Under the pieces are notes generated by a model. It searched no databases and was not told the DNA's origin. It saw nothing but the letters and a program-made list of their open reading frames with translations. A program made the translations under genes and the position numbers. From a virus (taxonomy: Duplodnaviria; Heunggongvirae; Uroviricota; Caudoviricetes), in IMG/VR virus record IMGVR_UViG_2778260996_000004: a stretch of 21,068 nt of DNA. One strand, given 5' to 3'. Of this stretch, positions 1 to 17,100 are shown piece after piece. The first letter of the stretch is position 1, and each line of letters opens with the position of its first letter.

Positions 1-55
1 GCACCACCCCGTCAGTAGCTGAACAGGAGGGACAGCTGATAGAAACAGAAGCCAC
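1..55 (-). CDS. insA: IS1 InsA, N-terminal fragment (truncated by window edge)
   Basis: Minus-strand translation from GTG (revcomp of 53-55) gives VASVSISCPSCSATDGVV, matching the InsA N-terminus as I recall it. Confidence 0.7.
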   Translation of the reverse strand, partial: MASVSISCPSCSATDGVV

Positions 56-110
56 TGGAGCACCTCAAAAACACCATCATACACTAAATCAGTAAGTTGG
101 CAGCATCACC
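1..110 (-). mobile_element. IS1 insertion sequence, left end (about 110 bp of a 768-bp element; remainder lies upstream of the window)
   Basis: Minus-strand reading of 1-110 is GGTGATGCTGCCAACTTACTGATTTAGTGTATGATGG...CTGACGGGGTGGTGC, which I recognise from memory as the IS1 left terminal inverted repeat plus insA leader (the same segment survives in Tn9/pACYC-type vectors). IR terminus at 110. No search run. Confidence 0.85.
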
Positions 111-121
111 GGGAGGTTATT

Positions 122-739
122 ATGGATAAAAATGTAGAGCATGTATTAGTTGATGCAATTGAAAATAAGCAATCTTTAACAGTCGTTTACTTAGGAGGGA
201 GCCAGCCCGGAACATTAAGGAATATTTCTCCGATTAGTATAAATGGGGATAAGTTGCGGGCAAGATGCCATAGTTCTGGAGCAGTAAAGGTTTTCAATCT
301 TGGGAAAATACAGTTACCCAGTGACTCCTGCGCGGTATCTATGCATTATGGAGATTTAGAAGTTAAAGCTTATGAGACGATGCAGAGCGTAAATGACAAC
401 TTTCATGCCCTTTATCCTGAAGGACGATGGGGTGTTGATTTTAATGAGCATCGCTTTGCTTTATTTGATTTTTTTAAAAACGGGAAACGAAAAAAAACGG
501 CATTTATGGCAATTGAGTTCAGGGAAAGAGATGAAGAGAAAATAATAACAGGTGTAACAATTGATATTGGTATATCTGGAACAGTGATTTCTGAGAAATC
601 CCGAATCCCAAAAAGACGACCATGGGTAGTGGTTGGTCCCGAACACGGAGAATACAGTACTTATTCAACTTTGGACAAGGCTGCTACAGCGTTTTTTGAG
701 AGGCTTTCGTTGATAGCATCCGGCCTGGAAGATAATTGA
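122..739 (+). CDS. hypothetical protein, 205 aa, AT-rich orphan/cargo gene; possible N-terminal SH3-like (WYL-like) beta-barrel; function unknown
   Basis: Intact ORF with GGGAGG (111-116) 5 nt before ATG 122; followed by an intrinsic terminator; composition visibly more AT-rich than the rest of the window (my rough estimate about 40% GC against more than 50% elsewhere). No family recognised. Confidence 0.75.
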   Translation: MDKNVEHVLVDAIENKQSLTVVYLGGSQPGTLRNISPISINGDKLRARCHSSGAVKVFNLGKIQLPSDSCAVSMHYGDLEVKAYETMQSVNDNFHALYPEGRWGVDFNEHRFALFDFFKNGKRKKTAFMAIEFRERDEEKIITGVTIDIGISGTVISEKSRIPKRRPWVVVGPEHGEYSTYSTLDKAATAFFERLSLIASGLEDN

Positions 740-868
740 TTTTATGTTTGGTATTCAGAGTTCGCCGTGCTTAAGAAAGTCAAGATTCTAAAAATACTGA
801 ATGAGCTACTTGTGTTATAACAAAAATGCTATTAGTGTGTTAAGAGTGGTTACTTCGCCACACAACTT

Positions 869-893
869 AAACCCGCCACTGAGCGGGTTTTTT
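869..893 (+). terminator. rho-independent terminator downstream of the 205-aa gene
   Basis: AAA-CCCGC-cactga-GCGGG-TTTTTT: 5-bp GC stem (872-876/883-887), 6-nt loop, T6 tract, A-tract on the 5' side. Confidence 0.6.
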
Positions 894-1015
894 GTACCTG
901 TAAACTTGGTGCAGTACAGTAAACACGCTGGTGGTCGTGAATACTGACTTTTTATCTTGCTGGCTTTTTAGACAAGAGTTATTGGTATGTCATGTTAACC
1001 AGAAGGGAAAAAGAC

Positions 1016-1219
1016 ATGCTAAAACAGCAAGATATGACAGAAACCGCCGCCGCAGTCCTTCATTTCTTACCTGCTGACAAGTGGGTAACGCCACGCATGA
1101 TGACGAGAACTACCGGAGTAAGCGAAGCCCGGTGCCAGTTAATACTGACTCAGTTAGTTCTGGCGGGGCTGGCGAAGGATAACGGCGGGTACGGGAATAA
1201 ATTCAGACGCTGCCAGTAA
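1016..1219 (+). CDS. small winged-helix-like DNA-binding protein (about 67 aa; ORF opens at 992)
   Basis: ORF 992-1219; internal ATG 1016 is preceded by AGAAGGGA. Segment TRTTGVSEARCQLILTQLVLAGLAK has the look of an HTH recognition helix. Short ORF, no family assignment. Confidence 0.45.
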   Translation: MLKQQDMTETAAAVLHFLPADKWVTPRMMTRTTGVSEARCQLILTQLVLAGLAKDNGGYGNKFRRCQ

Positions 1220-1369
1220 TGGCGGTTTCCTGCTGTGAAAATGGGCGGCTGGTGGGTGTTGGTAGCACCTGCCAGCCATTCGCTCATGCTTACTGGTCAC
1301 AAGCGAACCACGGCCCACTGCTTTAGCGCAAAAGCAGAGTGAGCCTACCAGAGTTACGCTTACTGATCC

Positions 1370-2422
1370 ATGAAAAATACTGTAAAAATAAACAGTGTTG
1401 ATTTAATCAACGCTGATTGCCTGCATTTTATTCAGTCCCTGCCTGATGATTCCATTGACCTGATTGTTACCGATCCGCCGTACTTCAAGGTGAAACCCAA
1501 CGGTTGGGACAATCAGTGGAAAGGGGACGAAGATTACCTTAAGTGGCTGGACCACTGTCTGGCCCAGTTCTGGCGGGTGTTAAAACCTGCCGGAAGCCTT
1601 TATCTGTTCTGTGGGCATCGCCTGGCATCTGATATTGAGATCATGATGCGTGAACGTTTCAACGTGCTTAACCATATCATCTGGGCGAAGCCGTCCGGAC
1701 GTTGGAATGGGTGTAATAAAGAAAGTCTGCGCGCATATTTTCCTGCCACAGAGCGCGTTCTGTTTGCTGAACATTACCAGGGGCCATATCGCGGCAAAAG
1801 TGACGGCTATGCAGCAAAAGAAAGGGAACTCAAACAGCACATAATGGCACCGCTGATATCGTATTTCAGGGATGCTCGTGCCGAACTGGGTATAACGGCA
1901 AAACAAATTGCCGAAGCCACAGGTAAGAAAAATATGGTTTCCCACTGGTTTGGTGCCAGTCAGTGGCAGTTGCCGAATGAGGCTGACTATCGGAAGTTAC
2001 AGGCACTGTTTTCCCGTATAGCGGCAGAGAAGTTTCAGGAACAACAACTGGAACAACCACACCACCAGCTGGTGGCATCTTATGATTCACTGAATCGCAA
2101 ATATTCTGAATTGCTGGATGAGTTTAAATCTCTCCGGCGCTATTTCTCCGTATCAGTCTCCGTGCCTTATACCGATGTCTGGACGCATAAACCCGTTCAG
2201 TTCTACCCGGGTAAACATCCGTGCGAGAAACCGGCGGATATGCTCCGGCAAATAATCAATGCCAGTAGTCGCCCTGGTGATCTGGTTGCTGATTTCTTTA
2301 TGGGATCCGGTTCCACAATAAAAGCAGCAATGGCGCTGGGGCGTCGGGCGTTAGGTGTTGAACTTGAGTCAGAGCGGTTTAATCAGACGGTGAAAGAGGT
2401 AAGTGAACTGGTGGGGAAATAA
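1370..2422 (+). CDS. DNA methyltransferase, beta-class amino-MTase (N6-adenine or N4-cytosine), phage orphan type
   Basis: DPPY motif IV near the N-terminus (LIVTDPPYF) and FxGxG motif I near the C-terminus (DFFMGSGST), the beta-class motif order; 350 aa. Confidence 0.9.
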   Translation: MKNTVKINSVDLINADCLHFIQSLPDDSIDLIVTDPPYFKVKPNGWDNQWKGDEDYLKWLDHCLAQFWRVLKPAGSLYLFCGHRLASDIEIMMRERFNVLNHIIWAKPSGRWNGCNKESLRAYFPATERVLFAEHYQGPYRGKSDGYAAKERELKQHIMAPLISYFRDARAELGITAKQIAEATGKKNMVSHWFGASQWQLPNEADYRKLQALFSRIAAEKFQEQQLEQPHHQLVASYDSLNRKYSELLDEFKSLRRYFSVSVSVPYTDVWTHKPVQFYPGKHPCEKPADMLRQIINASSRPGDLVADFFMGSGSTIKAAMALGRRALGVELESERFNQTVKEVSELVGK

Positions 2423-2429
2423 TTCTGGT

Positions 2430-2455
2430 GGCCACGTTGCGTGGCCTTTTTATTT
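2430..2455 (+). terminator. intrinsic terminator-like hairpin after the methyltransferase
   Basis: GGCCACG-ttg-CGTGGCC (7-bp perfect stem) followed by TTTTTATTT, 8 nt after the MTase stop. Confidence 0.5.
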
Positions 2456-2498
2456 CCAACACAGCACCCGCAAATATCGCGAGGTGAGAGATGACGAA

Positions 2499-2834
2499 AT
2501 GCCTCATAACCCAAATACCTGGCCGGACTGGCTGGAGTTGTTTCAGAGCTGGTGGCGTGGAGACACGCCGCTGGGTGCAGTGATTATGTCGATCGTTATG
2601 GCTGGTTTGCGCATCGCCTATTTTGGCGGTGGTGGTGGCTGGAAGCGAAAAACGCTCGAGATTTTGCTCTGTGGCGCTCTGACGCTGACCTTTGCATCCG
2701 CTCTTGAGTATGTCGGATGGCCTAAATCACTTTCTGTTGCCATTGGTGGCGGTGTGGGGCTGATCGGTGTCGATGCTATTCGTGGGGCTGCAATGCGAGT
2801 AATCGGTAACAAGTTTGGTGGCTCTAAGGAGTAA
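2499..2834 (+). CDS. putative holin, class I topology (three hydrophobic segments), 111 aa
   Basis: Sits directly upstream of the endolysin gene; three hydrophobic/Gly-rich segments and a charged C-terminal tail; GAGGTG upstream of ATG 2499. The ORF track extends it to GTG 2403, but that extension contains the terminator hairpin. Not lambda-S-like in sequence. Confidence 0.6.
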   Translation: MPHNPNTWPDWLELFQSWWRGDTPLGAVIMSIVMAGLRIAYFGGGGGWKRKTLEILLCGALTLTFASALEYVGWPKSLSVAIGGGVGLIGVDAIRGAAMRVIGNKFGGSKE

Positions 2835-2837
2835 TTT

Positions 2838-3314
2838 ATGCAGGTACTAAATTCCCAGCGTAAAGCTTTCCTCGATATGTTGGCGTGGTCAGAAGGAACG
2901 GATAACGGGCGACAGCCAACCCGCAATCACGGCTACGACGTTATTGTAGGTGGTGAGTTATTCACGGATTACTCCGATCATCCTCGCAAACTTGTCACGC
3001 TAAACCCCAAACTCAAATCAACAGCCGCCGGACGTTACCAGCTTCTTTCACGCTGGTGGGATGCTTACCGTAAACAGCTTGGCCTGAAAGATTTTTCTCC
3101 AGAAAGCCAGGACGCTGTAGCTCTGCAGCAGATTAAAGAGCGTGGCGCTTTACCGATGATTGATCGCGGTGATATTCGTCAGGCTATCGACCGTTGCAGC
3201 AATATCTGGGCTTCACTACCGGGCGCTGGTTATGGTCAGTTCGAGCATAAAGTTGACAGCCTGATTGCAAAATTCAAAGAAGCAGGCGGAACGGTCAGAG
3301 AGATTGAGGTATGA
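2838..3314 (+). CDS. R: endolysin, lambda R-type lytic transglycosylase
   Basis: 158 aa, near-identical to lambda R as I recall it ([22 protein letters not shown]...GTVREI.V); AAGGAG RBS at 2826-2831. Confidence 0.95.
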
Positions 3315-3778
3315 GCAGAGTAACCGCGATTATCTCCGCTCTGGTTATTTGTATCATCGCCTGCCTGTCATGGGCTGTTAATCATTACCGTGATAACGCC
3401 ATCGCCTACAAAGAACAGCGTGATAAAAAAGTCAGTGAGCTGAAGCAGGCGACCGCCACCATCGCTGACATGCAGCAGCGTCAGCGTGATGTTGCTGCGA
3501 TCGATGCAAAATACACGAAGGAGTTAGCCGATGCGAAAACTGAAAATGAAACTCTGCGCGCTGATGTTGCCGCTGGTCGTAAGCGCCTGCGGGTCAATGC
3601 CAGTTGCTCCGCAGCCGTGCGTGAAGCCACCGGACCCACCAGCATGGATAATGCAACCAGCCCCCGACTGGCAGACACCGCTGAACGGGATTATTTCACC
3701 CTCAGAGAACGGTTGATGACGATGCAGAAGCAACTGGAAGGGGCGCAGGAATATATCCGCACCCAGCGCATTAAGTAG
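3311..3778 (+). CDS. Rz: i-spanin Rz
   Basis: 155 aa, strongly lambda-Rz-like ([16 protein letters not shown]...); start overlaps the R stop (GTATGA). Confidence 0.9.
3531..3716 (+). CDS. Rz1: o-spanin Rz1 (lipoprotein), embedded in Rz in the +1 frame
   Basis: 61 aa; signal peptide with lipobox-like LVVSAC, proline-rich mature part ([30 protein letters not shown]) matching lambda Rz1; AAGGAG RBS at 3517-3522. Confidence 0.85.
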
Positions 3779-4162
3779 ATGGAGAAAAAACACGAATCTG
3801 TGGTTTTTACTGAGCGCGGTGTACACGGTGGAACATATGGCGGGAAGTTTGTTGCTTATGATTATGCAGCATGGCTAAACCCCGGATTTAAATATGCAGC
3901 CTATAAAGTCCTGGATGACTACTTCACCGGAGAACTTCAGCATCGCAACAGCTTAAGTGCGCAGCTCAATATGAAGTGTCATGAGTTTGATCAGAAAAAA
4001 GATATGGCGAGCTTCTGTGGACAAGGGCTGGCGGCATGGCGCTATACGAAGCCAGTGTTGGTCGCTGAGATTAACTCCCTGGCTAACCAGCTGCAGATAA
4101 CGATCCCCGGGCTGTCCGGTATTTGCCGGTATGAAATTACCGGAAGGCGCGGTCGTTACTGA
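3779..4162 (+). CDS. hypothetical protein, 127 aa, possible KilA-N/APSES-type DNA-binding domain
   Basis: ATG 3779 immediately follows the Rz stop (TAGATG). Motif GTYGGKFVAYDYAAWLNPGFKYAAYKVL resembles the KilA-N pattern from memory; no SD evident. Confidence 0.45.
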   Translation: MEKKHESVVFTERGVHGGTYGGKFVAYDYAAWLNPGFKYAAYKVLDDYFTGELQHRNSLSAQLNMKCHEFDQKKDMASFCGQGLAAWRYTKPVLVAEINSLANQLQITIPGLSGICRYEITGRRGRY

Positions 4163-4419
4163 GTAACAGCAGGCATTACAGCAGCCCTTCACTGAGGGGC
4201 TGCGATAATGTGAGGAATAAAAAACCGGCAGGGGAAATCCATTGAAGATTTGCCGGTGGCAAAAGATGGCCATGCTTTTAACCTTAGTAGCAGAGTTACG
4301 GAGTTCAACAACGACCGTCGCCGTTATCTTGCTGAAAGGCGTTTCAATGATTTTCATCAATTTATTCATCAGCAATGGTGATAATCACTCTCATTTTGGC
4401 GGGTCCTTCCGGTGGGGTG

Positions 4420-4450
4420 GCCTGCCACGGGGCGGGAGCGGCGCGGAAAA
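4420..4450. other. candidate cohesive-end site (cosN-like), with the AT-rich region 4450-4615 as candidate cosB/IHF region
   Basis: ACGGGGCGGGAGCGGCGCGG (4427-4446) shares the ACGGGGCGG core with lambda cosN as I recall it; lies about 170 bp upstream of the terminase small-subunit start and is followed by a strongly AT-rich stretch. Confidence 0.35.
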
Positions 4451-4615
4451 AGGCTAGTTTTTGAAATTTCATTCGTCATCACCACTACTGTAATGCATTG
4501 ATATTGCATTAGTTTTATTTTTATGGTGTCGATTTTGATTGTTTTTTGTTCATCACTAACACCGTTTGCCTAAAGTTGTTCGCAAGATGCATGTTTAAAA
4601 CATTCTGGAGCGGGT

Positions 4616-5110
4616 ATGGATCAAGAGTTAAAAAATCTGACGCTGAATATCAGTCAACTGGCGGCACTGTCAGGTGTACATCGCCAGACTGCTGCGGCAA
4701 GGCTGCAAAATCTACCCGTTGCAGGGGGGCATGAAAGCAACCTCAAGCTTTATCGGGTGGTTGATATTGTGTCGGCATTTCTGGCATTACCACCGCCGGT
4801 TGCAGAAGGCGAAATGGACGCGCATGAGCGCAAAGCCTGGTATCAGTCTGAACGTGAGCGTCTTAAGTTCGAACAGGAAACGGCACAACTCATTCCGGCC
4901 AGTGATGTCAGACGGGAGTTTGCCATCTGGGCAAAAGCGGTCGTGCAGGTACTGGAGACATTACCGGATATTCTGGAACGTGACTGCGGTCTGCAGCCTG
5001 CCGCTGTGAGCCGTGTTCAGTCCATTATTGATGATCTGCGCGATCAGATAGCCCTGCGGGTGACCGAAGCAGGTGCGGATGATGAGGAGGAATTACAGCA
5101 GGAGGAGTAA
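4616..5110 (+). CDS. terminase small subunit
   Basis: 164 aa; position immediately upstream of and overlapping the large terminase (TAATG); N-terminal HTH-like segment (LTLNISQLAALSGVHRQTAAARL); acidic C-terminus. Confidence 0.7.
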   Translation: MDQELKNLTLNISQLAALSGVHRQTAAARLQNLPVAGGHESNLKLYRVVDIVSAFLALPPPVAEGEMDAHERKAWYQSERERLKFEQETAQLIPASDVRREFAIWAKAVVQVLETLPDILERDCGLQPAAVSRVQSIIDDLRDQIALRVTEAGADDEEELQQEE

Positions 5111-7212
5111 TGCTGAATCAGGAAACCGCAAAGGCAGCACGAACCGATTCAGGTTATATCCTTCGCGCACCGAGACGAATGCGGGTTGCTGATGCCGTTG
5201 CTCAGTATATGCGGGTGCCCATGGGGGCAGGGAACTCAGTCCCGTGGGATCCGCTGGTGGCACCGTATGTTATTGAGCCGATGAACTGCCTGGCCTCGCG
5301 TGAATACGACGCAGTGATATTTGTTGGTCCGGCACGAACCGGCAAGACTATCGGCCTGATTGACGGCTGGGTGATTTACAACGTGATTTGCGATCCTGCG
5401 GATATGCTGATCATTCAGATGACGGAGGAAAAAGCCCGCGAACACTCCAAAAAACGACTTGCCAGAACGTTTCGCGTCAGCCCGGAAGTGGTCAGTCGCC
5501 TGAGTCCGAACAAAAATGACAACAACGTTTATGACAGAACATTCCTTGCTGGCAACTACCTGAAAATCGGCTGGCCGTCAGTCAATATCATGTCCTCATC
5601 AGATTATAAATGCGTGGCGCTGACGGATTATGACCGTTTTCCGGAAGATATTGATGGCGAGGGGGATGCCTTCTCTCTTGCCTCAAAACGTACCACCACA
5701 TTTATGTCCAGTGGTATGACGCTGGTGGAGAGTTCCCCCGGCAGGGATGTGAAGGATGTGAAATGGCGACGGACTTCACCGCATGAGGCTCCACCAACCA
5801 CGGGGATACTGTCACTCTATAACCGTGGCGATCGACGTCGCTGGTACTGGCCCTGCCCACACTGTGGTGAGTATTTTCAGCCCTGCGGCGATGTGGTTGC
5901 TGGTTTCCGTGATATTGCCGATCCTGTGCTGGCAAGTGAGGCGGCTTATATTCAGTGTCCTTCCTGTTCAGGACGGATTATGCCTGAACAAAAACGTGAG
6001 CTGAACGGACGTGGGGTCTGGTTGCGGGATGGTGAATCCATCAATGCGGATGGCAGTCGTTATGGTGATCCCCGACGCTCACGTATTGCGTCATTCTGGA
6101 TGGAGGGTCCGGCAGCTGCTTACCAGACACTCTCGCAACTCGTTTACAAACTGCTTACTGCAGAACAGGAATACGAGACAACCGGAAGTGAAGAAACACT
6201 CAAGACGGTTATCAATACCGACTGGGGATTACCTTATCTTCCCCGTGCCAGCATGGAGCAACGAAAAAGTGAACTGCTTGAGCAGCGGGCAGAGCCAGTT
6301 CCTTCCCGCAGTGTGCCGGATGGCGTTAATTTCCTGGTGGCGACAGTTGATGTGCAGGCGGGACGTCATCGCCGTTTTGTGGTTCAGGTAACGGGCTATG
6401 GCAGCCGTGGCGAACGCTGGATTATTGATCGTTACAACATCACGCAGTCATTGCGCGGTGACAGCGACGGGGAGAGCCAGCGAATTGATCCGGCCAGCTA
6501 TCCGGAAGACTGGGATGTCCTGCTGACGGATGTTTTTCATAAAAGCTGGCCGCTGGCCTCCGATCCTTCTCAACAAATGCGACTGATGGCAATGGCGGTG
6601 GATTCCGGCGGTGAAGACGGGGTCACTGATAATGCCTATAAATTCTGGCGTCGTTGCCGTCGTGATGGCCTTGGTAAACGTATTTACTTGTTTAAGGGCG
6701 ACAGCATCCGGCGCGCAAAACTGATCACCCGTACATTCCCTGATAACACCGGACGAACGGGCCGACGGGCGCAGGCCGCAGGTGATGTGCCGCTCTGGCT
6801 TCTTCAGACGGATGCCCTGAAAGACCGGGTGAATAACGCGTTATGGCGTGACTCTCCAGGTCCCGGCTATGTGCATTTCCCTGACTGGCTGGGGAGCTGG
6901 TTTTACGACGAACTGACGTATGAAGAGCGGAGCAGTGACGGGAAATGGAGTAAGCCGGGTCGCGGTGCCAACGAAGCTTTTGACCTGATGGTGTATGCCG
7001 AGGCTCTGGTCATTCTGCATGGATACGAAAAGATCCGCTGGCCGGATGCACCGGAATGGGCGAGCCGGGAAACCTGGCTGGAGTGTGTCCCGGACAGTAC
7101 CAAACCGTCACCCTCACCGGAACCGGTATCCACGCCTGTTAAAAAACAAAAACGGAAGAAAACAGTAACTGACGATGTTAACCCCTGGCTGACTTCCGGA
7201 GGATGGTTATGA
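5110..7212 (+). CDS. terminase large subunit, GpA family
   Basis: 700 aa; Walker-A-like GPARTGKT; Cys motifs CPHCGEYF...CPSC; position between small terminase and portal. Confidence 0.9.
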   Translation: MLNQETAKAARTDSGYILRAPRRMRVADAVAQYMRVPMGAGNSVPWDPLVAPYVIEPMNCLASREYDAVIFVGPARTGKTIGLIDGWVIYNVICDPADMLIIQMTEEKAREHSKKRLARTFRVSPEVVSRLSPNKNDNNVYDRTFLAGNYLKIGWPSVNIMSSSDYKCVALTDYDRFPEDIDGEGDAFSLASKRTTTFMSSGMTLVESSPGRDVKDVKWRRTSPHEAPPTTGILSLYNRGDRRRWYWPCPHCGEYFQPCGDVVAGFRDIADPVLASEAAYIQCPSCSGRIMPEQKRELNGRGVWLRDGESINADGSRYGDPRRSRIASFWMEGPAAAYQTLSQLVYKLLTAEQEYETTGSEETLKTVINTDWGLPYLPRASMEQRKSELLEQRAEPVPSRSVPDGVNFLVATVDVQAGRHRRFVVQVTGYGSRGERWIIDRYNITQSLRGDSDGESQRIDPASYPEDWDVLLTDVFHKSWPLASDPSQQMRLMAMAVDSGGEDGVTDNAYKFWRRCRRDGLGKRIYLFKGDSIRRAKLITRTFPDNTGRTGRRAQAAGDVPLWLLQTDALKDRVNNALWRDSPGPGYVHFPDWLGSWFYDELTYEERSSDGKWSKPGRGANEAFDLMVYAEALVILHGYEKIRWPDAPEWASRETWLECVPDSTKPSPSPEPVSTPVKKQKRKKTVTDDVNPWLTSGGWL

Positions 7213-7421
7213 ACCAGAATGATATCGAAGCCATGATTCAGCGTTATACGGAAGCTGAAATGGCGGTGCTGGACGGAAAATCCGTCACCTTTAATGGTCA
7301 GCAGATGACCATGGAAAACTTATCTGAGATCCGGCAGGGACGGCAGGAGTGGGAGCGCCGCCTTGCGGCTCTGATTACACGACGACGGGGGCATCCCGGG
7401 TACCGGCTGGCGAGGTTCTGA
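7209..7421 (+). CDS. head-tail joining protein, gpW-like
   Basis: 70 aa from ATG 7209 (GGAGG at 7198-7202, 6-nt spacer); C-terminal RRRGHPGY resembles the lambda W C-terminus; start overlaps the terminase stop, stop overlaps the portal start (TGATG). Confidence 0.6.
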   Translation: MNQNDIEAMIQRYTEAEMAVLDGKSVTFNGQQMTMENLSEIRQGRQEWERRLAALITRRRGHPGYRLARF

Positions 7422-8929
7422 TGGCAATTCTTGATGATGTGATTGGCGTTTTTTCACCAGGATGGAAAGCGGCAAGGCTGCGTTCCCGTGCGGTGATCCA
7501 GGCTTATGAGGCCGTAAAAACGACGCGGACACACAAAGCCCGGCGGGAAAACCGAACTGCCGACCAGTTAAGCCAGTACGGGGCCGTGTCGTTACGTGAG
7601 CAGGCCCGTTACCTTGATAACAACCACGATCTGGTTATTGGTGTATTTGACAAGCTGGAAGAACGGGTGGTGGGGAAAAACGGGATTATTGTCGAGCCAC
7701 ATCCGGTATTACGCAATGGGGCCATTGCCCGTGATCTGGCAGCGGAGATACGCACCCGATGGAGTGAATGGTCTGTCAGCCCGGAAGTCACCGGGCAGTT
7801 TACCCGTCCGATGCTGGAACGTCTGATGTTGCGTACCTGGCTGCGCGATGGTGAGGTGTTTGCCCAGATGGTTTCCGGGCGCATAAACAACCTGACGCCT
7901 TCTGCCGGTGTTCATTTCTGGCTGGAGGCGCTCGAGCCAGACTTTATTCCCATGACCAGTGATGAGAGCAACAGGCTGAATCAGGGCGTGTTTGTTGATG
8001 ACTGGGGGCGTCCCGAAAAATATCTGGTGTATAAAAGTCGTCCCGTATCCTGGCGGCAGATGGAAACCAAAGAAGTGGATGCAGAGCGAATGCTGCATCT
8101 TAAATTTGTTCGCCGTCTGCACCAGATGCGCGGGACGTCTTTGTTGTCCGGTGTGCTGATCCGCCTCAGTGCCCTGAAAGAGTATGAAGATTCTGAGCTG
8201 ACTGCAGCAAGGGTCGCCGCTGCTCTGGGGATGTACATCCGGAAAGGCGACGGGCAGAGCTATGAACCGGATGGTAATGGCAGCAAGGAGAATGAACGCG
8301 AGCTTACCATTCAGCCAGGCATTATTTACGACGATCTGAAACCCGGCGAAGAAATCGGAATGGTGAAGTCGGATCGTCCCAATCCTAACCTTGAAACTTT
8401 TCGTAATGGTCAGTTGCGTGCCGTGGCGGCGGGCAGTCGTCTGAGTTTTTCCAGTACGGCACGCAACTATAACGGCACTTACAGCGCCCAGCGTCAGGAG
8501 CTGGTTGAATCCACAGATGGCTACCTGATCCTGCAGGACTGGTTTATTGGTGCCGTCACCCGCCCGATGTATCGTGCCTGGCTGAAACAGGCTGTGGCAT
8601 CCGGTGTTATCAGGCTACCCCGCGATCTTGACCGTTCTTCACTGTATACCGCGGTGTATTCCGGACCGGTGATGCCGTGGATTGACCCTGTTAAGGAGGC
8701 TGAGGCCTGGAAAATCCAGATTCGTGGTGGAGCGGCGACAGAATCAGACTGGGTACGTGCTGGTGGTCGTAATCCGGATGATGTCAAACGTCGGCGCAAG
8801 GCCGAAATTGATGAAAACCGCAAGCTGGATCTGGTATTTGATACCGATCCGGCCAGTGATAAAGGAGGCAGCAGTGCCGCAACGAAACGACAGGAGCCGC
8901 AGCACACCGACGACCAGTCCGAAGAATAA
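7421..8929 (+). CDS. portal protein
   Basis: 502 aa from ATG 7421; position after terminase and W; size and layout typical of lambda-family portals. Confidence 0.85.
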   Translation: MAILDDVIGVFSPGWKAARLRSRAVIQAYEAVKTTRTHKARRENRTADQLSQYGAVSLREQARYLDNNHDLVIGVFDKLEERVVGKNGIIVEPHPVLRNGAIARDLAAEIRTRWSEWSVSPEVTGQFTRPMLERLMLRTWLRDGEVFAQMVSGRINNLTPSAGVHFWLEALEPDFIPMTSDESNRLNQGVFVDDWGRPEKYLVYKSRPVSWRQMETKEVDAERMLHLKFVRRLHQMRGTSLLSGVLIRLSALKEYEDSELTAARVAAALGMYIRKGDGQSYEPDGNGSKENERELTIQPGIIYDDLKPGEEIGMVKSDRPNPNLETFRNGQLRAVAAGSRLSFSSTARNYNGTYSAQRQELVESTDGYLILQDWFIGAVTRPMYRAWLKQAVASGVIRLPRDLDRSSLYTAVYSGPVMPWIDPVKEAEAWKIQIRGGAATESDWVRAGGRNPDDVKRRRKAEIDENRKLDLVFDTDPASDKGGSSAATKRQEPQHTDDQSEE

Positions 8930-10901
8930 TTCTTGGTTCAGGATGCAGGCTGGTCACCAGAGTGACGCGGATATTTATATTTATGACGAGATTGGTTTCT
9001 GGGGTGTTACAGCGAAGCAGTTTATCAGTGATCTGAATGCACTGGGCGATATCACCCACATTAATCTCCATATCAATTCACCGGGTGGCGATGTCTTTGA
9101 AGGCATCGCCATTTTTAATGCACTGAAAACACATGGTGCGTCCATTACCGTTTATGTCGACGGTGTGGCGGCGTCAATGGCGTCGGTCATTGCGATGGTG
9201 GGAAACCCGGTCATTATGCCGGAAAACACCTTCATGATGATTCATAAACCATTTGGCTTTACGGGCGGTGATGCGGAGGACATGCGCACCTATGCCGACC
9301 TGCTCGATAAGGTTGAGGCGGTTCTGTTACCCGCTTATGCACAGAAAACCGGGAAAACCACCGATGAAATTGCTGCCATGCTGGCGGATGAGACCTGGAT
9401 GTCCGGTGCCGAATGTCTGGCACATGGATTTGCTGATCAGGTGACGCCAGCCGTTAAGGCAATGGCATGTATTCAGTCAAAACGTACAGAGGAATTTAAA
9501 AAGATGCCGGAATCCATTCGAAACATGATTACTCCGCCACGCAACAGTGCTCCACGCGTACAGGATGATGAACCTGCAGCCTCCCGGACGCCAGTGCAGG
9601 CAGCAGCACCCGTGGTGGATGAAAACAGCATCCGTGCGCAGGTACTGGCAGAGCAAAAAGCGCGTGTAAACGGTATTAATGATCTGTTTGCCATGTTTGG
9701 CGGGCGTTATCAGACGCTGCAGGCTCAGTGTCTTGCCGATCCTGAATGTTCGCTGGAGCAGGCCCGCGAAAAGCTGTTGAACGAGATGGGGCGCGAGTCC
9801 ACGCCATCCAATAAAAATACCCCGGCTCATATTTATGCCGGTAACGGTAATTTTGTGGGGGACGGGATTCGCCAGGCGCTGATGGCGCGTGCCGGATTTG
9901 AAAAAACCGAACGTGATAATGTCTACAACGGGATGACCCTGCGTGAATATGCCCGTATGTCACTGACTGAACGGGGTATTGGGATTTCCAGTTATAACCC
10001 GATGCAGATGGTCGGTGCGGCGTTCACACACAGTACGTCTGACTTCGGTAATATTCTGCTGGATGTTGCGAACAAAGCCATTCTGCAGGGCTGGGAAGAT
10101 GCCCCTGAAACCTATGAACAGTGGACGCGGAAAGGTCAGTTGTCTGATTTTAAAATTGCCCATCGTGTGGGTATGGGGGGCTTCAGTGCTCTGCGTCAGG
10201 TGCGTGAAGGGGCGGAATATAAATACGTCACCACCGGAGATAAACAGGCCACTATTGCACTGGCGACCTATGGCGAGCTGTTCAGTATCACCCGTCAGGC
10301 CATTATCAATGATGATCTGAATATGCTGACCGATGTCCCGATGAAGCTGGGCCGTGCGGCGAAATCCACTATTGCCGATCTGGTTTATGCCATTCTGACG
10401 TCTAACCCGAAAATCTCCACAGATAATGTAAGTCTGTTCGATAAAGCGAAACATGCAAACGTACTGGAGAGCGCTGCAATGGACGTGGCATCGCTGGATA
10501 AAGCCCGCCAGTTGATGCGCGTTCAGAAAGAGGGGGAGCGTCATCTGAATATTCGTCCTGCGTTCGTACTGGTACCGACGGCGATGGAGTCTGTTGCTAA
10601 CCAGGTCATTCGCTCCTCAAGTGTCAAGGGGGCTGACATTAACGCCGGTATTATTAACCCGGTGAAAGATTTTGCGACCGTTATTGCAGAGCCTCGTCTT
10701 GATGATAACAGCCAGACCACCTTCTACCTGGCTGCGTCAAAAGGCTCCGATACGATTGAAGTGGCTTATCTCAACGGTGTGGATACGCCATATATTGATC
10801 AGATGGAGGGCTTCAGTGTGGATGGCGTGACAACGAAAGTGCGTATTGACGCCGGTGTCGCGCCAGTTGATCACCGCGGTCTGGTGAAATGTACGGCGTA
10901 A
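8874..10901 (+). CDS. prohead protease (ClpP/S14-type) - scaffold-like linker - major capsid protein fusion
   Basis: N-terminal ClpP-like region (IYIYDEIGFWG...INSPGGDV...MASVIAMVG), then a long C-terminal domain in the major-capsid position. Start ambiguous: GTG 8874 has a strong SD (AAAGGAGG 8861-8868) but overlaps the portal 3' end; ATG 8943 lacks an SD. Confidence 0.8.
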   Translation: MPQRNDRSRSTPTTSPKNNSWFRMQAGHQSDADIYIYDEIGFWGVTAKQFISDLNALGDITHINLHINSPGGDVFEGIAIFNALKTHGASITVYVDGVAASMASVIAMVGNPVIMPENTFMMIHKPFGFTGGDAEDMRTYADLLDKVEAVLLPAYAQKTGKTTDEIAAMLADETWMSGAECLAHGFADQVTPAVKAMACIQSKRTEEFKKMPESIRNMITPPRNSAPRVQDDEPAASRTPVQAAAPVVDENSIRAQVLAEQKARVNGINDLFAMFGGRYQTLQAQCLADPECSLEQAREKLLNEMGRESTPSNKNTPAHIYAGNGNFVGDGIRQALMARAGFEKTERDNVYNGMTLREYARMSLTERGIGISSYNPMQMVGAAFTHSTSDFGNILLDVANKAILQGWEDAPETYEQWTRKGQLSDFKIAHRVGMGGFSALRQVREGAEYKYVTTGDKQATIALATYGELFSITRQAIINDDLNMLTDVPMKLGRAAKSTIADLVYAILTSNPKISTDNVSLFDKAKHANVLESAAMDVASLDKARQLMRVQKEGERHLNIRPAFVLVPTAMESVANQVIRSSSVKGADINAGIINPVKDFATVIAEPRLDDNSQTTFYLAASKGSDTIEVAYLNGVDTPYIDQMEGFSVDGVTTKVRIDAGVAPVDHRGLVKCTA

Positions 10902-10924
10902 ACGTCGCAGACAACAACTCTGAT

Positions 10925-10944
10925 GGCCCGTAAGGGCTTTTTTT
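10925..10944 (+). terminator. weak intrinsic terminator/attenuator after the capsid gene
   Basis: GCCC-gtaa-GGGC stem followed by T7 tract, 25 nt after the capsid stop. Confidence 0.4.
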
Positions 10945-10987
10945 GTACCTGAAATCAGCCCCTGAACGGGGCTGTGCGGAGACAGTT

Positions 10988-11311
10988 ATGGCAAAGAATT
11001 TTGTAGAAGAAGGAAAAACGGTGGCGATTGTTGCCAGTGCAGCCATCAGCAGCGGAGACCTGGTGCAGGTGGGTGATGTTTTTGCGGTGGCGCTGACCGA
11101 TATTCCACAGGGTGAAACAGGCGACGGCCTGACCGAAGGTGTGTTTATGCTGCCTAAGCTGAAAACGGATGACATGAAAACGGGTAAGAAGGTTTATCTG
11201 AAGTCCGGAAAAGTTCAGCTGACTAACAGCGGCTCTGATCCGCTGGTCGGGGTTGTCTGGGCAGATGCCGGAACCAGTGCAGAAGAAGTGCCGGTAAAAC
11301 TCAATGTCTGA
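10988..11311 (+). CDS. small head-associated protein (107 aa), possibly DUF2190-like
   Basis: GGAG upstream of ATG 10988; position directly after the major capsid gene; Gly/Val-rich. Family assignment is from memory and weak. Confidence 0.5.
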   Translation: MAKNFVEEGKTVAIVASAAISSGDLVQVGDVFAVALTDIPQGETGDGLTEGVFMLPKLKTDDMKTGKKVYLKSGKVQLTNSGSDPLVGVVWADAGTSAEEVPVKLNV

Positions 11312-11579
11312 TCCCTTTTCCCGGCTGGCAGCGCGTATGGATGCGATCACGGTCAGAAAGATGGGAAAGACAGCCTCGATTAATGATGTCGATATGACTG
11401 TGATCCCGGGAGAAACACTGGCAGAGCTGAATGCTCTGTCCGGACCTGCGGTCTCTCTGGTGGTGTTTTCTTCGGGATACCGCCCACGGCGCGGGGATCG
11501 CGTTGTTTATGACGGACAACATTGGACGGTCACACGGCATGAACGCTTTAACGGTAAGCCAATGATCTTTATTGAGTAA
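11304..11579 (+). CDS. head-tail connector, FII-like
   Basis: 91 aa; sits where FII sits in lambda (before Z); RRGD motif similar to lambda FII; start overlaps the upstream stop (ATGTCTGA). Confidence 0.55.
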   Translation: MSDPFSRLAARMDAITVRKMGKTASINDVDMTVIPGETLAELNALSGPAVSLVVFSSGYRPRRGDRVVYDGQHWTVTRHERFNGKPMIFIE

Positions 11580-11590
11580 AGAGGTGTGGG

Positions 11591-12181
11591 ATGAAGGGGC
11601 TTGAGAATGCCATCCGCAATCTGAACAGCCTTGATACCCGTATGGTGCCACAGGCCAGCGCATGGGCGATAAACCGTGTGGCACAGAAAGCGGTCTCGGT
11701 TGCCACCCGGCAGGTTGCCGGGAATACCGTTGCGGGAGATAACCAGGTGAAAGGGATCCCCCTGAAACTGGTACGTCAGCGTGTCCGGGTGTTTAAAGCC
11801 AGTCCGTCAGGAAAAATGACGGCCAGGATCCGCGTTAACCGGGGCAATCTGCCCGCCATCAAACTGAACACAACACGGCGGCGTGCTGGTGAAGGACTGA
11901 GAGTGGGAAAATACTTTTTCCGGGGGGCATTTGTTCAGCAACTGGCGAATGGCCGCTGGCATGTTCTGAGGCGTCTTCCTGAAGCGCGTTTTGCAACAGG
12001 GCATGACTATCAGGGCAGGCCAAGGAAAAATCGTCTTCCTGTGGAGGTAGTGAAAATCCCGCTGTCCGGACCGCTGACACAGGCATTTGAAGATGCCCGC
12101 GACCGCATCATTGCTGCGGAAATGCCGAAACAGCTGGGGTATGTACTGAAACAACAACTGAGATTATGGCTGACCCGATGA
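11591..12181 (+). CDS. Z: minor tail protein Z (tail completion)
   Basis: 196 aa; clear similarity to lambda Z (MKGLE.A..NL...AINRVA...NGRWHV..R......EVVKIP...PL..AF...LG.L.QQLR). Confidence 0.9.
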   Translation: MKGLENAIRNLNSLDTRMVPQASAWAINRVAQKAVSVATRQVAGNTVAGDNQVKGIPLKLVRQRVRVFKASPSGKMTARIRVNRGNLPAIKLNTTRRRAGEGLRVGKYFFRGAFVQQLANGRWHVLRRLPEARFATGHDYQGRPRKNRLPVEVVKIPLSGPLTQAFEDARDRIIAAEMPKQLGYVLKQQLRLWLTR

Positions 12182-12579
12182 ACCGACATACACAAATCCG
12201 CCAGGTCGTACTGGCACGCCTTCGGGAACAGTGTGGAGACAGCGCCACGTTTTTTGACGGGCTTCCGGCATTTATTGATGCGCAGGAACTGCCTGCCGTG
12301 GCGGTGTGGCTGAGTGATGCTCAGTACACCGGAAAAATGACGGATGAAGATGACTGGCAGGCTGTTCTGCATATTGCCGTCTTCATCCGGGCACAGGCAC
12401 CGGATTCAGAGCTGGATATGTGGATGGAGAGCACCATTTTCCCGGCTCTGAATGATGTACCGGCACTTTCCGGACTCATCGACACCCTGATCCCACTCGG
12501 TTTTAACTATCAACGTGATAATGAGATGGCCACCTGGGCGATGGCGGAAATCACGTACCAGATCACGTACACGAATTAA
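12166..12579 (+). CDS. U: tail terminator protein U
   Basis: 137 aa; similarity to lambda U (ATFFDG.PA...FPAVAV.L..A.YTG...PDSELD.WMES.I.P..PALS.LI...TY.ITY); overlaps the Z stop. Confidence 0.9.
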   Translation: MADPMNRHTQIRQVVLARLREQCGDSATFFDGLPAFIDAQELPAVAVWLSDAQYTGKMTDEDDWQAVLHIAVFIRAQAPDSELDMWMESTIFPALNDVPALSGLIDTLIPLGFNYQRDNEMATWAMAEITYQITYTN

Positions 12580-12589
12580 GGAGGTGGTA

Positions 12590-13333
12590 ATGACCACACC
12601 AAATCCACTGGCAAAGACGAAAGGTGCGGGGACGACGTTCTGGATGTATACCGGCAACGGCGATGCGTTTGCGAATCCTCTGTCGGACACTGACTGGCTG
12701 CGTCTTGCGATGGTGAAGGATCTGCAACCTGGCGAAATGACCGCTGATGCAGAAGATGACACTTATCTCGATGATGAAGATGCAGACTGGAAAACGACAA
12801 CCCAGGGGCAGAAATCCGTCGGTGATACTTCGGCGACGCTGGCCTGGCGTCCGGGTGACAGCGGGCAGAAAAAACTGGTTCAGTTGTTCGACTCCGGTGA
12901 AGTCTGCGCGTTTCGTATCAAATATCCCAACGGCACTGTTGATGTTTTCCGTGGCTGGCTGAGTTCACTGGGTAAAACCATTGCCTCAAAAGACGTGATG
13001 ACCCGCACCGTGAAAATCAGCGGTGTGGGGCGTCCATATCTGGCAGAGGAGGGCACTCAAACTGTGGGCGTTACCGGGCTGACGGTGGCACCGGCATCCG
13101 CCAGTGTCAATGTGGGAGCAACCACCACGCTGACCTTTACAGTAAAACCTGACGGAGCCAGTGACAAAGCGATCAGTGTGCATTCGACAGATCCACAGAC
13201 TGCCACGGTGACCCTGAACGGGCTTGTGGCCACGGTGAAAGGCGTGAAGCAGGGCAGTGTCAGCATTGTGGGCATGACTTCTGACGGCGATTTTGTGGCA
13301 GTGGCTACGGTGACTGTCAGCGCCGCAGGTTAA
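12590..13333 (+). CDS. V: major tail protein V with C-terminal Ig-like (Big_2-type) domain
   Basis: 247 aa from ATG 12590 (AAGGAGG RBS); strong similarity to lambda V (KGAGTT.W.Y.G.GD..ANPLSD.DW.RLA.VKDL.PGE...NGTVDVFRGW). Confidence 0.9.
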   Translation: MTTPNPLAKTKGAGTTFWMYTGNGDAFANPLSDTDWLRLAMVKDLQPGEMTADAEDDTYLDDEDADWKTTTQGQKSVGDTSATLAWRPGDSGQKKLVQLFDSGEVCAFRIKYPNGTVDVFRGWLSSLGKTIASKDVMTRTVKISGVGRPYLAEEGTQTVGVTGLTVAPASASVNVGATTTLTFTVKPDGASDKAISVHSTDPQTATVTLNGLVATVKGVKQGSVSIVGMTSDGDFVAVATVTVSAAG

Positions 13334-13354
13334 CAGGACGATACTCATCATTTG

Positions 13355-13377
13355 CCCCGGTTATCCGGGGCTTTTTT
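13355..13377 (+). terminator. intrinsic terminator-like hairpin between V and G
   Basis: CCCCGG-ttat-CCGGGG followed by CTTTTTT. Confidence 0.45.
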
Positions 13378-13390
13378 GCAGGTGGAGAAC

Positions 13391-13780
13391 ATGATGTTTC
13401 TGAAACAGGGCACGTTTAATTATGAAAAGCAGTCCGTGGTGCTCAGTGAGCTGTCCGGGCTGCAGAGAATTGAATATCTGGCGTTTGTTCAGCAGCGAAC
13501 GGCAAAGTTTGATGCCGAAGAGGGAGAACTGCCGGAGGCTGAACGACAGATTGCTTTTCTGCGGATGGGGATGGATATCAATGCCTGGCTGGTTTCCCGC
13601 TCACTGTGGAATGCGGAACAGTCTCAGGATGTTGAGACGCTTTGCGCATCCGTAATTACAACATGGTCGTATGATGCCCTGGGTGCGGGGGCGGAGATGG
13701 TTCTGTCGCTGAGCGGTATGGGAGCCATTGAGAATGCCGGGGATTTGGAGCATGAGGTGCTGACGCCGGAAAAGTCCTGA
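13391..13780 (+). CDS. G: tail assembly chaperone G
   Basis: 129 aa from ATG 13391; similarity to lambda G (MFLK...LSELS.LQRIE.LA). Confidence 0.8.
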   Translation: MMFLKQGTFNYEKQSVVLSELSGLQRIEYLAFVQQRTAKFDAEEGELPEAERQIAFLRMGMDINAWLVSRSLWNAEQSQDVETLCASVITTWSYDALGAGAEMVLSLSGMGAIENAGDLEHEVLTPEKS

Positions 13781-14118
13781 CGCGGGAAATGCAGTTTGTC
13801 ATGCGGCTTGCCCGGGAGTTCCGGCGGGCAGACTGGCGGCGGATGCTGTCGGAAATGTCGGCCACTGAGCTTGGGGAGTGGGGCGATTATTTCCGGATGC
13901 AGAGCTTCAGTGATGTGTGGATGGATGCGCAGTTTGCCTCGCTGAAGGCATTGATCGTGAGAATGGTGTCCGGCAGCAGTGATGCTGCGGTGGCTGATTT
14001 CAGCCTTTTACCGGAAGAGAACGGGATACCGGAGCGAACGGACGAAGAACTGATGCATCTTGGGGAAGGTATTTCCGGAGGTGTGCGTTATGGACCAGAT
14101 AGCCAACCTGGTCATTGA
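13756..14118 (+). CDS. T: T-frame segment of tail assembly chaperone G-T, reached by programmed -1 frameshift from G
   Basis: The -1 frame relative to G is open from 13756 to 14118 and overlaps the last 8 codons of G; A-rich candidate slip site CCG GAA AAG at 13766-13774; conserved G/GT architecture of siphovirus tails. Confidence 0.65.
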   Translation, partial: GADAGKVLTREMQFVMRLAREFRRADWRRMLSEMSATELGEWGDYFRMQSFSDVWMDAQFASLKALIVRMVSGSSDAAVADFSLLPEENGIPERTDEELMHLGEGISGGVRYGPDSQPGH

Positions 14119-17100
14119 TTTGGGGATTGATGCGGCAGAGTTTAAAAATGAAATTCCCCGTATCAAAAACCTTCTGAATGGTGCAGCCAGCGATGCAGAA
14201 CGGTCTTCTGCCCGTATGCAGCGTTTTATGGAGCGTCAGACTCAGGCCGCCCGGCAGACAACGCAGGCGGCTTCTTCGGCTGCAACAGCCGCATCCGTCC
14301 ATGCGCAGACGGTGGAGAAGAACGCACAGGCTCATGAACGCATGGCCCGCGAGGTGGAGAAAACCCGCCAGCGCATGGAGGCGCTGAGCCAGAAAATGCG
14401 CGAGGAACAGGCGCAGGCCATGGCTCTGGCGGAGGCTCAGGATAAAGCGGCTGCTGCGTTTTATCGTCAGATTGACAGTGTGAAACAGGCCAGTGCGGGG
14501 CTGCAGGAATTACAGCGTATTCAGCAGCAGATCCGACAGGCCAGAAACAGTGGCGGGATTGGTCAGCAGGATTATCTGGCGCTGATTTCTGAGGTTACGG
14601 CGAAAACCCGTGTTCTTACACAGGCTGAGGAAGAGGCTACCCGACAGAAAGTGGCGTTTATCCGTCAGCTTAAAGAGCAGGCAACCCGCCAGAATCTTTC
14701 TTCTTCTGAGTTGCTTCGTGCTAAGGCTGCCCAGCTGGGGGTAAGCAGTGCTGCAGAAGTGTATATCCGCAAAATGGAGCAGGCAGGAAAAGCCACGCAT
14801 TCGCTGGGTCTGAAAAGTGCAGCGGCCCGTCAGGAGATAGGCGTTCTGATAGGTGAACTGGCCCGCGGAAATTTAGGTGCGCTGAGGGGATCCGGAATAA
14901 CGCTGGCTAACCGTGCCGGGTGGATAGACACATTGATGTCACCGAAAGGCATGATGCTGGGCGGGGTTATTGGCGGTATTGCCGCGGCCGTCTATGGTCT
15001 GGGTAAAGCCTGGTATGACGGTCAGAAGGAGGGGGAAGAATTTAACCGCCAGCTGTCACTGACGGGGCATTATGCCGGAGTCACTGCCGGGCAGCTGTGG
15101 ACGCTCAGTCGTGCTATTTCCGGGAATGGTATCACGCAACATGCTGCAGCCGGTGCGCTGGCTCAGGTGGTGGGGAGTGGTGCATTTCGTGGAAACGATA
15201 TCGGTATGGTGGCGAGAGCTGCCGCAAAGATGGAGCGATCGGTTGGCCAGTCGGTCAGCGATACCATAAATCAGTTTAAGCGGCTGAAGGATGATCCTGT
15301 AAATGCCGCGAAGGCTCTGGACAATGAGCTGCATTTTCTTACTGCCACTCAGCTTGAGCAGATACGCGTCCTTGGGGATCAGGGGCGGTCCAGTGATGCG
15401 GCACGGATAGCCATGTCTGCACTGGCAGAGGAAACCGGTCGGCGTACTGCGGATATTGATAATAACCTCAATGCGCTGGGCAGTACGCTGAAGTATCTGT
15501 CTGATTTATGGAGTCGTTTCTGGGATGCGGCCATGAATATTGGTCGTGAAGACTCGCTGGATGAACAGATTGCCGCTTTACAGGAGAAAGTGTCGCGGGC
15601 GAAAAGACTCCCCTGGACGGCATCATCTTCTCAGGTTGAATACGATCAGCAGCGTCTTAACGATCTTCAGGAGAAAAAACGCCAGAAGGATTTGCAGGAT
15701 GCAAAAGAGCAGGCAGAGCGGAATTATCAGGAGCAACAGAAACGCCGTAATGCTGAAAATGCTGCACTGAACCGGATGAATGAAACGGAAGCAGCACGAC
15801 ATCAGCGTGAAATTGCGCGTATTAATGCCATGCAGTACGCCGATCAGGCTGTCAGGGATGCGGCGATACAACGTGAAAATGAACGTTACGAGAAAGCCAT
15901 TAAGAAAAAAACATCTGAAAACCGCAATGATGAAGCCACCCGGTTGCTGTTGCAGTACAGTCAGCAGCAGGCGCAGGTGGAGGGGCAGATCGCCGCCGCC
16001 AGACAGTCCGCGGGACTGACCACGGAAAAAATGACAGAGGCGCATAAGCAGCTTCTGGCCCTGCAGCAGCGTATCAGTGACCTGGCGGGTAAAAAGCTGA
16101 CAGCAGATGAAAAAAGCGTGCTGGCGCATAAGGATGAGCTGATTCAGGCACTGACGCTGCTGGATGCAAAACAGCAGGAGCTGCAGAAGCAGACGGCGCT
16201 GAATGACCTGAAGAAAAAATCCATTCAGCTTGCCAGCCAGCTGGCGGAAGAGGAACGGGCTCTGCGTCAGCAACATGACCTGGATATCGCCACAACAGGA
16301 ATGGGAGATAAGCAGCGTCAGCGGTACCAGACACAGTTCAGCCTGCAGCAAAAATATCAGCAGCAGATGGAGCAACTGGAGCGTGACAGTAAACAGAAAG
16401 GAACATACGGCACAGATGAATACCGGAATGCTGAGCAGATGCTGACAGACAGCCTTAACCGGCAACTGAACGAAAACAGACGCTACTGGCAGGAACAGGA
16501 ACTGATGCAGGCAGACTGGAAAAACGGTGCCATGCGGGCGTTTCAGAATTTTACAGAGAGTGCGGATAACGCAGCAGGTACCGCTGAGCAGATGTTTACA
16601 GCGGCATTTAACAGTGCAGGTAATGCACTGGCGACGTTCTGTACCACCGGAAAACTGAACTTCAGATCTTTTACCGCCTCGCTCCTTTCTGATCTGGCAA
16701 AAATCATGTCGCAGATGGTCATGATGCAGGCAGTGAAGGGGATTGGTTCGGCGTTTGGCTGGGGGAGTGCAGCAGCTGCCAGTGTGACACCAAATGCGGA
16801 TGGCGGTGTTTATCAGTCTGCTGATTTGAGTCGCTACAGTGGCACGGTGGTTAACCGTCCGACGTTTTTTGCTTTTGCAAAAGGCGCGGGTGTGATGGGG
16901 GAAGCTGGACCTGAAGCCATTCTGCCACTGCGTCGTGGTGCTGACGGTAAGCTGGGGGTTGTGGCGGATATTGGTGGTTCAGGTATGGCGATGTTTGCCC
17001 CGCAGTACAACATCGAGATCAATAACGATGGCACGAACGGGCAGATAGGTCCGGCTGCCCTGAAGGTGGTTTATGACCTTGGGAAAAAAGCGGCAGCGGA

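Follow-up and report, generated by a model that had tools for sequence, protein, structure and literature searches.

What becomes of a prophage gene, and of the late control region beside it, when the end of an insertion sequence comes to lie just 11 bp upstream of the gene's start codon? The question is raised by the left edge of a 21,068-nucleotide stretch of viral DNA (the window; IMG/VR record IMGVR_UViG_2778260996_000004, Caudoviricetes). The window opens inside an inverted IS1 sequence and continues into a gene for a protein of 205 amino acids (aa) with a predicted WYL domain. We consider it probable that a single IS1 element transposed recently into the 75-bp leader that separates the gene for the antiterminator Q from the WYL gene of a lambdoid prophage, that the WYL gene was cut off as a result, and that the late switch of the phage was left unchanged.

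An IS1 end adjoins the ribosome-binding site of the 205-aa gene

Bases 1-110 of the window match IS1A/IS1B at 110 of 110 positions (E 7e-50) and represent the left, insA-proximal end of the element on the minus strand. The same IS1A/IS1B element occurs about 72,700 times across 4,963 of the 5,426 complete E. coli genomes, and a match to a known element without a single mismatch leaves no room for chance. The annotated IS1A of E. coli K-12 (NC_000913, 19796-20563) was the reference for the boundary. Identity to it ends exactly at the annotated edge of the element, which is position 110 of the window, and the terminal inverted repeat reaches that edge with its canonical tip (GGTGATGCTGCCAACTTACTGAT...), as is expected of a real transposition. 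The GTG start of insA1 maps to position 55 (minus strand). As in IS1, insA is directed inward from a point some 55 bp from the left end; it runs away from the 205-aa gene, towards position 1, and its first 55 nt only are contained in the window. Scans for promoter consensus sequences, made on the window and on K-12 IS1A, also revealed a promoter-like sequence, CTGCCA-16-TATGAT (76-103, minus strand), that points into IS1 towards insA, a position that fits IS1's own insA promoter. The first-pass annotation of this DNA had described an inverted IS1 end with its repeat finishing at 110 and with insA directed away from the 205-aa gene, and it had named an alignment of 1-110 as the result that could overturn that description; the alignment bears the description out in each respect.

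The 11 bp between the IS1 tip and the ATG at 122 (111-121, plus strand; GGGAGGTTATT) are filled by a ribosome-binding site, GGGAGG (111-116), and a 5-nt spacer, just as had been read from the sequence at the outset. The sequence and its predicted folds identify the same 11 bp as a remnant of the 3' arm of an ancestral hairpin, which is preserved in relatives of the phage that are free of IS1.

The ancestral arrangement in IS1-free relatives

Versions of this locus that have no IS1 are common. The closest IS1-free relative is CP042947.1 (locus L031), which is 99.977% identical to the window over positions 111-17213 (17.1 kb). Its homology to the window begins at base 111, as does that of the other IS1-free relatives, and the long matches to window 1-1400 in complete E. 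coli genomes all begin at base 106 or 111. Four differences only separate the window from CP042947.1 (at 3207, 4724, 10175 and 15227), of which two are substitutions and two are changes in homopolymer length. The differences at 4724 and 10175 are the sole indels and involve G7 versus G6 homopolymers; the window versions keep a small terminase-like gene and a protease-capsid fusion gene open where CP042947.1 has both of them split, and these indels are probably sequencing errors in CP042947.1. All of the late open reading frames (ORFs) in the window are open, both frameshifts belonging to CP042947.1.

The gene for the antiterminator Q (123 aa, Pfam PF06530) ends 75 bp before the ATG in every IS1-free, gene-bearing locus that was fetched, and in each of the gene-bearing complete E. 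coli genomes examined it is this Q allele that lies directly upstream. The whole block, which takes in the C-terminal part of Q and the 205-aa gene and ends at window position 865, is carried by 51 of the 5,426 complete genomes. A sample of 40 records drawn from across the ranking showed coverage either of the full block or of just the first 43-162 nt, in Q, and this all-or-Q-only pattern indicates that Q, the 205-aa gene and the promoter travel as one module. The comparison with IS1-free relatives for which the first-pass annotation had called gives the ancestral upstream sequence as Q, an AT-rich leader of 75 bp and a hairpin. The annotation was also right to say that the insertion severs the 205-aa gene from its former upstream DNA: in the IS1-free twin, Q, the leader and the hairpin occupy that place.

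The hairpin forms the end of the ancestral leader and has a 17-bp stem, TAATAACCTCCTGATGA-tacctgt-TCAT(C/T)GGGAGGTTATTA (L031, 4974-5014), whose 3' arm takes in the ribosome-binding site together with the first base of the ATG. IS1 entered this arm between TCAT(C/T) and GGGAGG. The ancestral leader RNA has a predicted folding energy of -26.2 kcal/mol (z -5.4 against shuffles) with the ribosome-binding site paired; the leader now present in the window folds at -7.1 kcal/mol and is essentially unstructured. Two positions in the stem are not Watson-Crick pairs. Read on the plus strand they are G-U pairs, whereas the minus strand would have A-C mismatches there, which points to a plus-strand RNA structure and not to a palindrome in the DNA. 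The hairpin persists (-20.9 kcal/mol, z -3.4) in a second lineage, in which the protein is 72% identical; one C-G pair has there changed to U-G, one U-G pair has changed to U-A and one mismatch is new. In both lineages a TAnnnT hexamer (TATAAT, TATTAT or TACAGT) lies directly against the arm with which the ribosome-binding site is paired, and a transcript begun at this hexamer would be without that arm. Rfam and tRNA scans of the region returned nothing above threshold. A further promoter-like sequence, TGAACA-16-TATAAT, which matches at 10 of 12 positions, lies inside the hairpin on the minus strand (L001, 6003-5976) and reads back into Q; its position recalls that of the antisense paQ promoter of lambda, and it is weaker in the second lineage.

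A strain-specific insertion and the search for its other end

The pre-insertion site in L031 reads ...CCTGTTCATT|GGGAGGTTATTATG. On this basis GGGAGGTTA (111-119) is predicted to be the right-hand copy of a 9-bp target-site duplication, and the sequence is single-copy at the site in the IS1-free relatives. The exact junction between IS1 and the gene was absent from the 5,426 complete E. coli genomes (megablast), from species-representative genomes, from viral contigs and from metagenome contigs. The predicted left junction (...TTCAT(T/C)GGGAGGTTA|GGTAATGACTCC...) was not found in the collections either, with a variable gap of 0-6 nt allowed. Exact-protein look-ups with the 205-aa protein, the methyltransferase and the large terminase led to IS1-free contexts only, and near IS1 the window has no private protein variant in comparison with its relatives. 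With its junction missing from the 5,426 E. coli genomes and from three other collections, the insertion is strain-specific; it is an ordinary IS1 insertion of a familiar kind, and it is probably recent.

Six contigs with partial proteins starting 'EVIM...' were considered as IS1 junctions and were rejected, being without IS1 sequence and having differing prophage backgrounds. These six short-read contigs (L040-L045) start at GGAGGTTATTATG, the equivalent of window position 112/113, and two further contigs start in the hairpin loop. This clustering of contig breaks at the hairpin may be an effect of the palindrome on assembly or coverage, or it may reflect recurrent rearrangement. The window itself has its edges 110 nt inside IS1 (at the start) and inside the tail-fibre J gene (at 21068), both of which are commonly repeated within genomes. 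It may be a whole short-read contig bounded by repeats, and this would explain the absent upstream sequence.

An alternative with some claim to attention is that IS1 gave rise to an adjacent deletion or inversion that removed or moved the early region, Q included, so that the window would be the late-region remnant of a non-inducible prophage. IS1 is able to make adjacent deletions without target duplication (PMC9330008), the window does start inside IS1, and neither junction turned up in any collection searched. However, the break is at the IS1 tip, and the 17 kb to its right are 99.98% identical to an intact-looking prophage and have their late ORFs open, which points to a very recent event unaccompanied by other decay. 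It is a matter of general knowledge, too, that simple IS1 insertions are far commoner than deletions. We regard an adjacent rearrangement as unlikely, and prefer a simple insertion in the Q-gene leader.

The predicted late promoter lies downstream of the insertion

The Q protein (PF06530) is 57-59% identical to the Q proteins of Stx1a/Stx2a-converting phages in the phage collection. In the Stx phages TTTACG-16 bp-TATCAT-GATAAGAGTGGTTACATTGCCACGC...AACCCGCCGATGCGCGGGTTTTTTT is found right at the end of Q, where it overlaps the stop codon. The distance in Sakai Sp5 between a start 7 nt after TATCAT and the final T of the second terminator is 258 nt, and because this equals the published PR'-tR' distance, which was mapped by differential RNA-seq and Term-seq (PMC7547250), the Sp5 promoter is PR'. 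The Sakai Sp5 sequence and the published distance together provided our reference for PR'.

Homology to Stx phages, to PhiR40_1 and to the second lineage places the predicted PR' and Q-utilisation region of the window at 810-868 (plus strand). It consists of a -35 element TTGTGT (810-815), a 17-bp spacer, a -10 element TAGTGT (833-838) and a start at about 845, followed by GTTAAGAGTGGTTACTTCGCCACACAACTT. The hexamers are weak, with 3 of 6 matches each. An extended -10-like sequence, TGGTTACTT (847-855), sits where a sigma70-dependent pause element is expected; in phage 82 the pause is at +25. There follows, at 869-897 (plus strand), a terminator-like hairpin and T-run, AAACCCGCCACTGAGCGGGTTTTTT, which was recognised by its fold and by break-points in homology at 838 and 870. 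This hairpin corresponds by homology to the one that comes first after PR' in Stx phages, is an annotated terminator in phage Ayreon, and begins a block that is common to many phages with other Q alleles. The homology to phages of this kind starts at 838 (PhiR40_1) or at 870 (mEp460, Ayreon, Stx2c phages and cdtI), and these break-points coincide with the predicted -10/start and with the hairpin. Both lineages of this Q have in common the predicted -35 and the initial 11 spacer bases (TATAACAAAAA), which are not shared with other alleles; this fits a predicted allele-specific Q-binding site at 810-838.

The region has the components of an 82/933W-type late control region, namely a promoter, an initial transcribed region with a pause element, and a hairpin, all of them homologous to characterised cases, and these features of the sequence make it very likely that PR' is correctly assigned to approximately 810-897. 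In common with phage 82 and 933W-type Stx late control (PMC7547250) it has a homologous initial transcribed region, GTTAAGAGTGGTTAC(T/A)T..GCCAC, and the hairpin that comes next. It differs from the Stx phages in having a predicted -35, spacer and -10 that belong to this Q allele alone. Moreover, whereas PR' overlaps the Q stop codon in Stx phages, here the 75-bp leader, the 618-bp WYL gene and about 70 bp intervene.

The first-pass annotation had placed both Q and the late promoter upstream of IS1, and had supposed the late promoter to be displaced or disrupted there. The IS1-free relatives agree with it as far as Q is concerned, but the PR' homologue is downstream of the insertion, and 810-897 is identical between the window and its IS1-free twin, CP042947.1. 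Since the late switch is downstream and unchanged, and since Q acts in trans, late expression and induction are not expected to be blocked. Only a deletion of Q by the same IS1 would be expected to disturb late control: if Q is still present some 0.85 kb upstream of the ATG, it would act in trans on the intact late switch. Inducibility would be affected only in the case of the IS1-adjacent deletion that was considered above.

A different location for the late promoter has also to be weighed. If it were at the TATAAT/TATTAT box in the Q-gene leader, the 205-aa gene would be the first late gene and IS1 would lie inside the leader of the late operon, so that every late transcript would need to pass through it. 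Late promoters usually follow Q directly, the box is a perfect or 5/6 -10 element situated 40 bp before the ATG, and the second lineage keeps TAnnnT at this place. Its -35 match, however, is just 1-3 of 6, and the leader is without similarity to an initial transcribed region of the 82/933W type, a clear homologue of which is present at 839-897 instead. The conservation of the TATAACAAAAA spacer in two lineages of this Q, and its difference in other alleles, likewise speaks against a promoter in the leader, as does the presence of other cargo on the opposite strand in the same slot. We find this location improbable and retain the assignment of PR' to the region downstream of the WYL gene.

Consequences of the insertion for the 205-aa gene

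On our preferred reading of a single transposition event, the element would have landed in the 3' arm of an RNA hairpin in which the ribosome-binding site is normally held paired. The native upstream DNA, made up of Q, the leader and the hairpin's 5' arm, now stands off from the gene by one IS1 length, 768 bp for a complete element, or more. A candidate native promoter is the TATAAT/TATTAT box just before the hairpin, which is without a good -35. Transcription arriving from upstream would have to cross IS1 in the direction antisense to insAB. Polarity in either orientation is a classical property of IS1, and Prentki et al. reportedly described in 1986 IS1 insertions that were polar on neighbouring genes or that made hybrid promoters for them.

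A hybrid promoter using the IS1 end was one of the outcomes that the first-pass annotation had envisaged for the 205-aa gene, and our analysis speaks against it. The candidate that was revealed by a scan (97-123, plus strand) combines TTGGCA (97-102) with TATTAT (118-123) across a 15-bp spacer. It matches at 10 of 12 positions but is good only at this spacing, and its -10 overlaps the ATG. With spacers of 16, 17 and 18 bp the available -10 sequences are ATTATG, TTATGG and TATGGA, with 2/6, 1/6 and 3/6 matches, respectively. The start predicted from TATTAT is at about 130, inside the ORF and beyond both the ribosome-binding site and the ATG at 122, and the next in-frame methionine is residue 74, past the WYL domain. 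A promoter with a -10 at 16-18 bp and a start upstream of the ribosome-binding site was not found, and a consensus scan of window 1-121 and of the whole IS1 in this orientation detected no plus-strand promoter-like site. With a spacer that is too short and a start that falls after the ATG, a hybrid promoter that expresses the 205-aa gene is unlikely; TTGGCA-15-TATTAT might fire, though not usefully for this ORF.

It is instructive to set this geometry beside that of known cases. IS1 carries an outward -35 box, and hybrid promoters arise when a correctly spaced -10 is provided (PMC8764528, PMC9330008); the effects of IS1 insertions in E. coli ST131 range with geometry from a 7-log2 increase to a decrease (PMC8764528). 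The afaA, osmB and ugd insertions in ST131 involve the same IS1 end, with TTGGCA 8 bp from the tip (PMC8764528), and in the window, as in those cases, an AT-rich region lies upstream of the gene and the distance to the -10 sets the outcome. Unlike the situation in ST131, the sole good -10 is 15 bp away and over the start codon, which gives no productive hybrid promoter, and the insertion also removes the hairpin that buries the ribosome-binding site.

Activation of the 205-aa gene by the IS1 end, whether by a hybrid promoter or by outward transcription and with over-expression now that the ribosome-binding site is freed from the hairpin, has in its favour the known capacity of the outward -35 box (PMC9330008, PMC8764528) and the 10/12 match of TTGGCA-15-TATTAT, but it is very improbable given a 15-bp spacer, a start near 130 from which translation at Met 74 would remove the WYL domain, -10 matches of just 1-3/6 at 16-18 bp and no plus-strand promoter-like site elsewhere in IS1. 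The lack of a usable outward promoter in these scans, taken together with the polarity of IS1, suggests that the gene is silenced, and loss of expression is the most likely net effect of the insertion. The 205-aa gene would be transcriptionally silent, or reliant on rare read-through, in spite of its exposed ribosome-binding site.

The WYL gene and its slot beside Q

The 205-aa gene (122-739, plus strand), for which RefSeq has the identical start in relatives (WP_000360285/6), is predicted to encode an N-terminal WYL domain without a helix-turn-helix (HTH) and a C-terminal alpha/beta domain. The match to Pfam PF13280 (WYL) scores 16.5 bits, which is below the gathering cut-off of 21.8 (E 0.0085), the PADLOC WYL models match at E 0.0014-0.0066, and the protein has the WYL (Sm/SH3-like beta-barrel) fold. 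Pfam and a fold search found no N-terminal winged-helix/HTH; the protein begins with the WYL domain. In this it differs from the HTH-WYL-WCX regulators, which have an N-terminal winged helix; the WYL regulators DriD, CapW, BrxR and PafBC are the closest known WYL systems. No function could be assigned from the PADLOC and NCBIfam libraries, and the protein belongs to PHROG 8498 (function unknown). Our best guess is that it is a putative HTH-less accessory protein that binds a ligand or ssDNA. The description 'orphan cargo gene', which had been applied to it in the first instance, is not sustained. An exhaustive HMMER search found about 490 clusters at 50% identity (E <= 0.001), the majority of them full-length at 185-210 aa, and the linkage of the gene to one Q allele is consistent in the complete E. 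coli genomes examined. The literature searched yielded no relevant account of a WYL-domain protein in the late-control region of a lambdoid phage.

In relatives, the slot directly after Q contains an NYN-domain gene or a 148-aa gene, each on the opposite strand, or an OmpC-like porin gene, and it looks like a hot spot for cargo. Loci with alternative cargo after a PF06530-type Q are L021 (2383-3246), L013 (1961-2407), L017 (1773 onward) and L030 (5826-6908). The 205-aa gene resembles the morons found between Q and the lysis genes of lambdoid phages (stx, nanS-p and porin genes) in occupying a variable slot beside Q. Unlike those morons, which are located after tR', it lies between Q and its promoter and is strictly co-inherited with one Q allele. 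Phage Ayreon has the homologue of the 869-897 hairpin twice (L014, 1813-1856 and 2492-2530), flanking two small genes, as if an insertion of cargo had duplicated the terminator.

The first ORF after the predicted late promoter is a conserved 67-aa gene (1016-1219, plus strand), identified from gene calls in relatives and assigned to PHROG 331, and it is followed by a DNA methyltransferase (1370-2422) and by the lysis cassette, the neighbouring genes being recognised by Pfam hits. The 158-aa endolysin (2838-3314) has no Pfam match at E <= 0.01. We take it to be plainly lambda R-like (a transglycosylase), and the missing match looks like a gap in family coverage and not the sign of a novel protein.

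Implications for the late control of lambdoid prophages

A more ambitious proposal is that the Q-linked WYL gene is a deliberately gated component of a switch, of which IS1 would have produced a natural knock-out or decoupling. Transcripts that read through from Q would carry the hairpin and be translationally silent, while a promoter whose -10 abuts the arm pairing with the ribosome-binding site would start inside the hairpin and produce a translatable mRNA, in the lysogen for example. The HTH-less WYL protein might then detect a signal in the form of a nucleic acid or nucleotide, with effects on the late switch or on superinfection. We offer this proposal as a long shot.

Considered as an event, the insertion is a routine case of IS1 interrupting an accessory gene of a prophage. 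The value of the analysis is corrective: the predicted late promoter and terminator are downstream of the insertion and intact, and the IS1 element should not be counted as evidence against the inducibility of this prophage. The arrangement of Q, hairpin, WYL gene and PR' appears to be undescribed, and a WYL gene that is situated between one Q allele and its own predicted late promoter, behind a conserved hairpin, is of modest interest for phage biologists.
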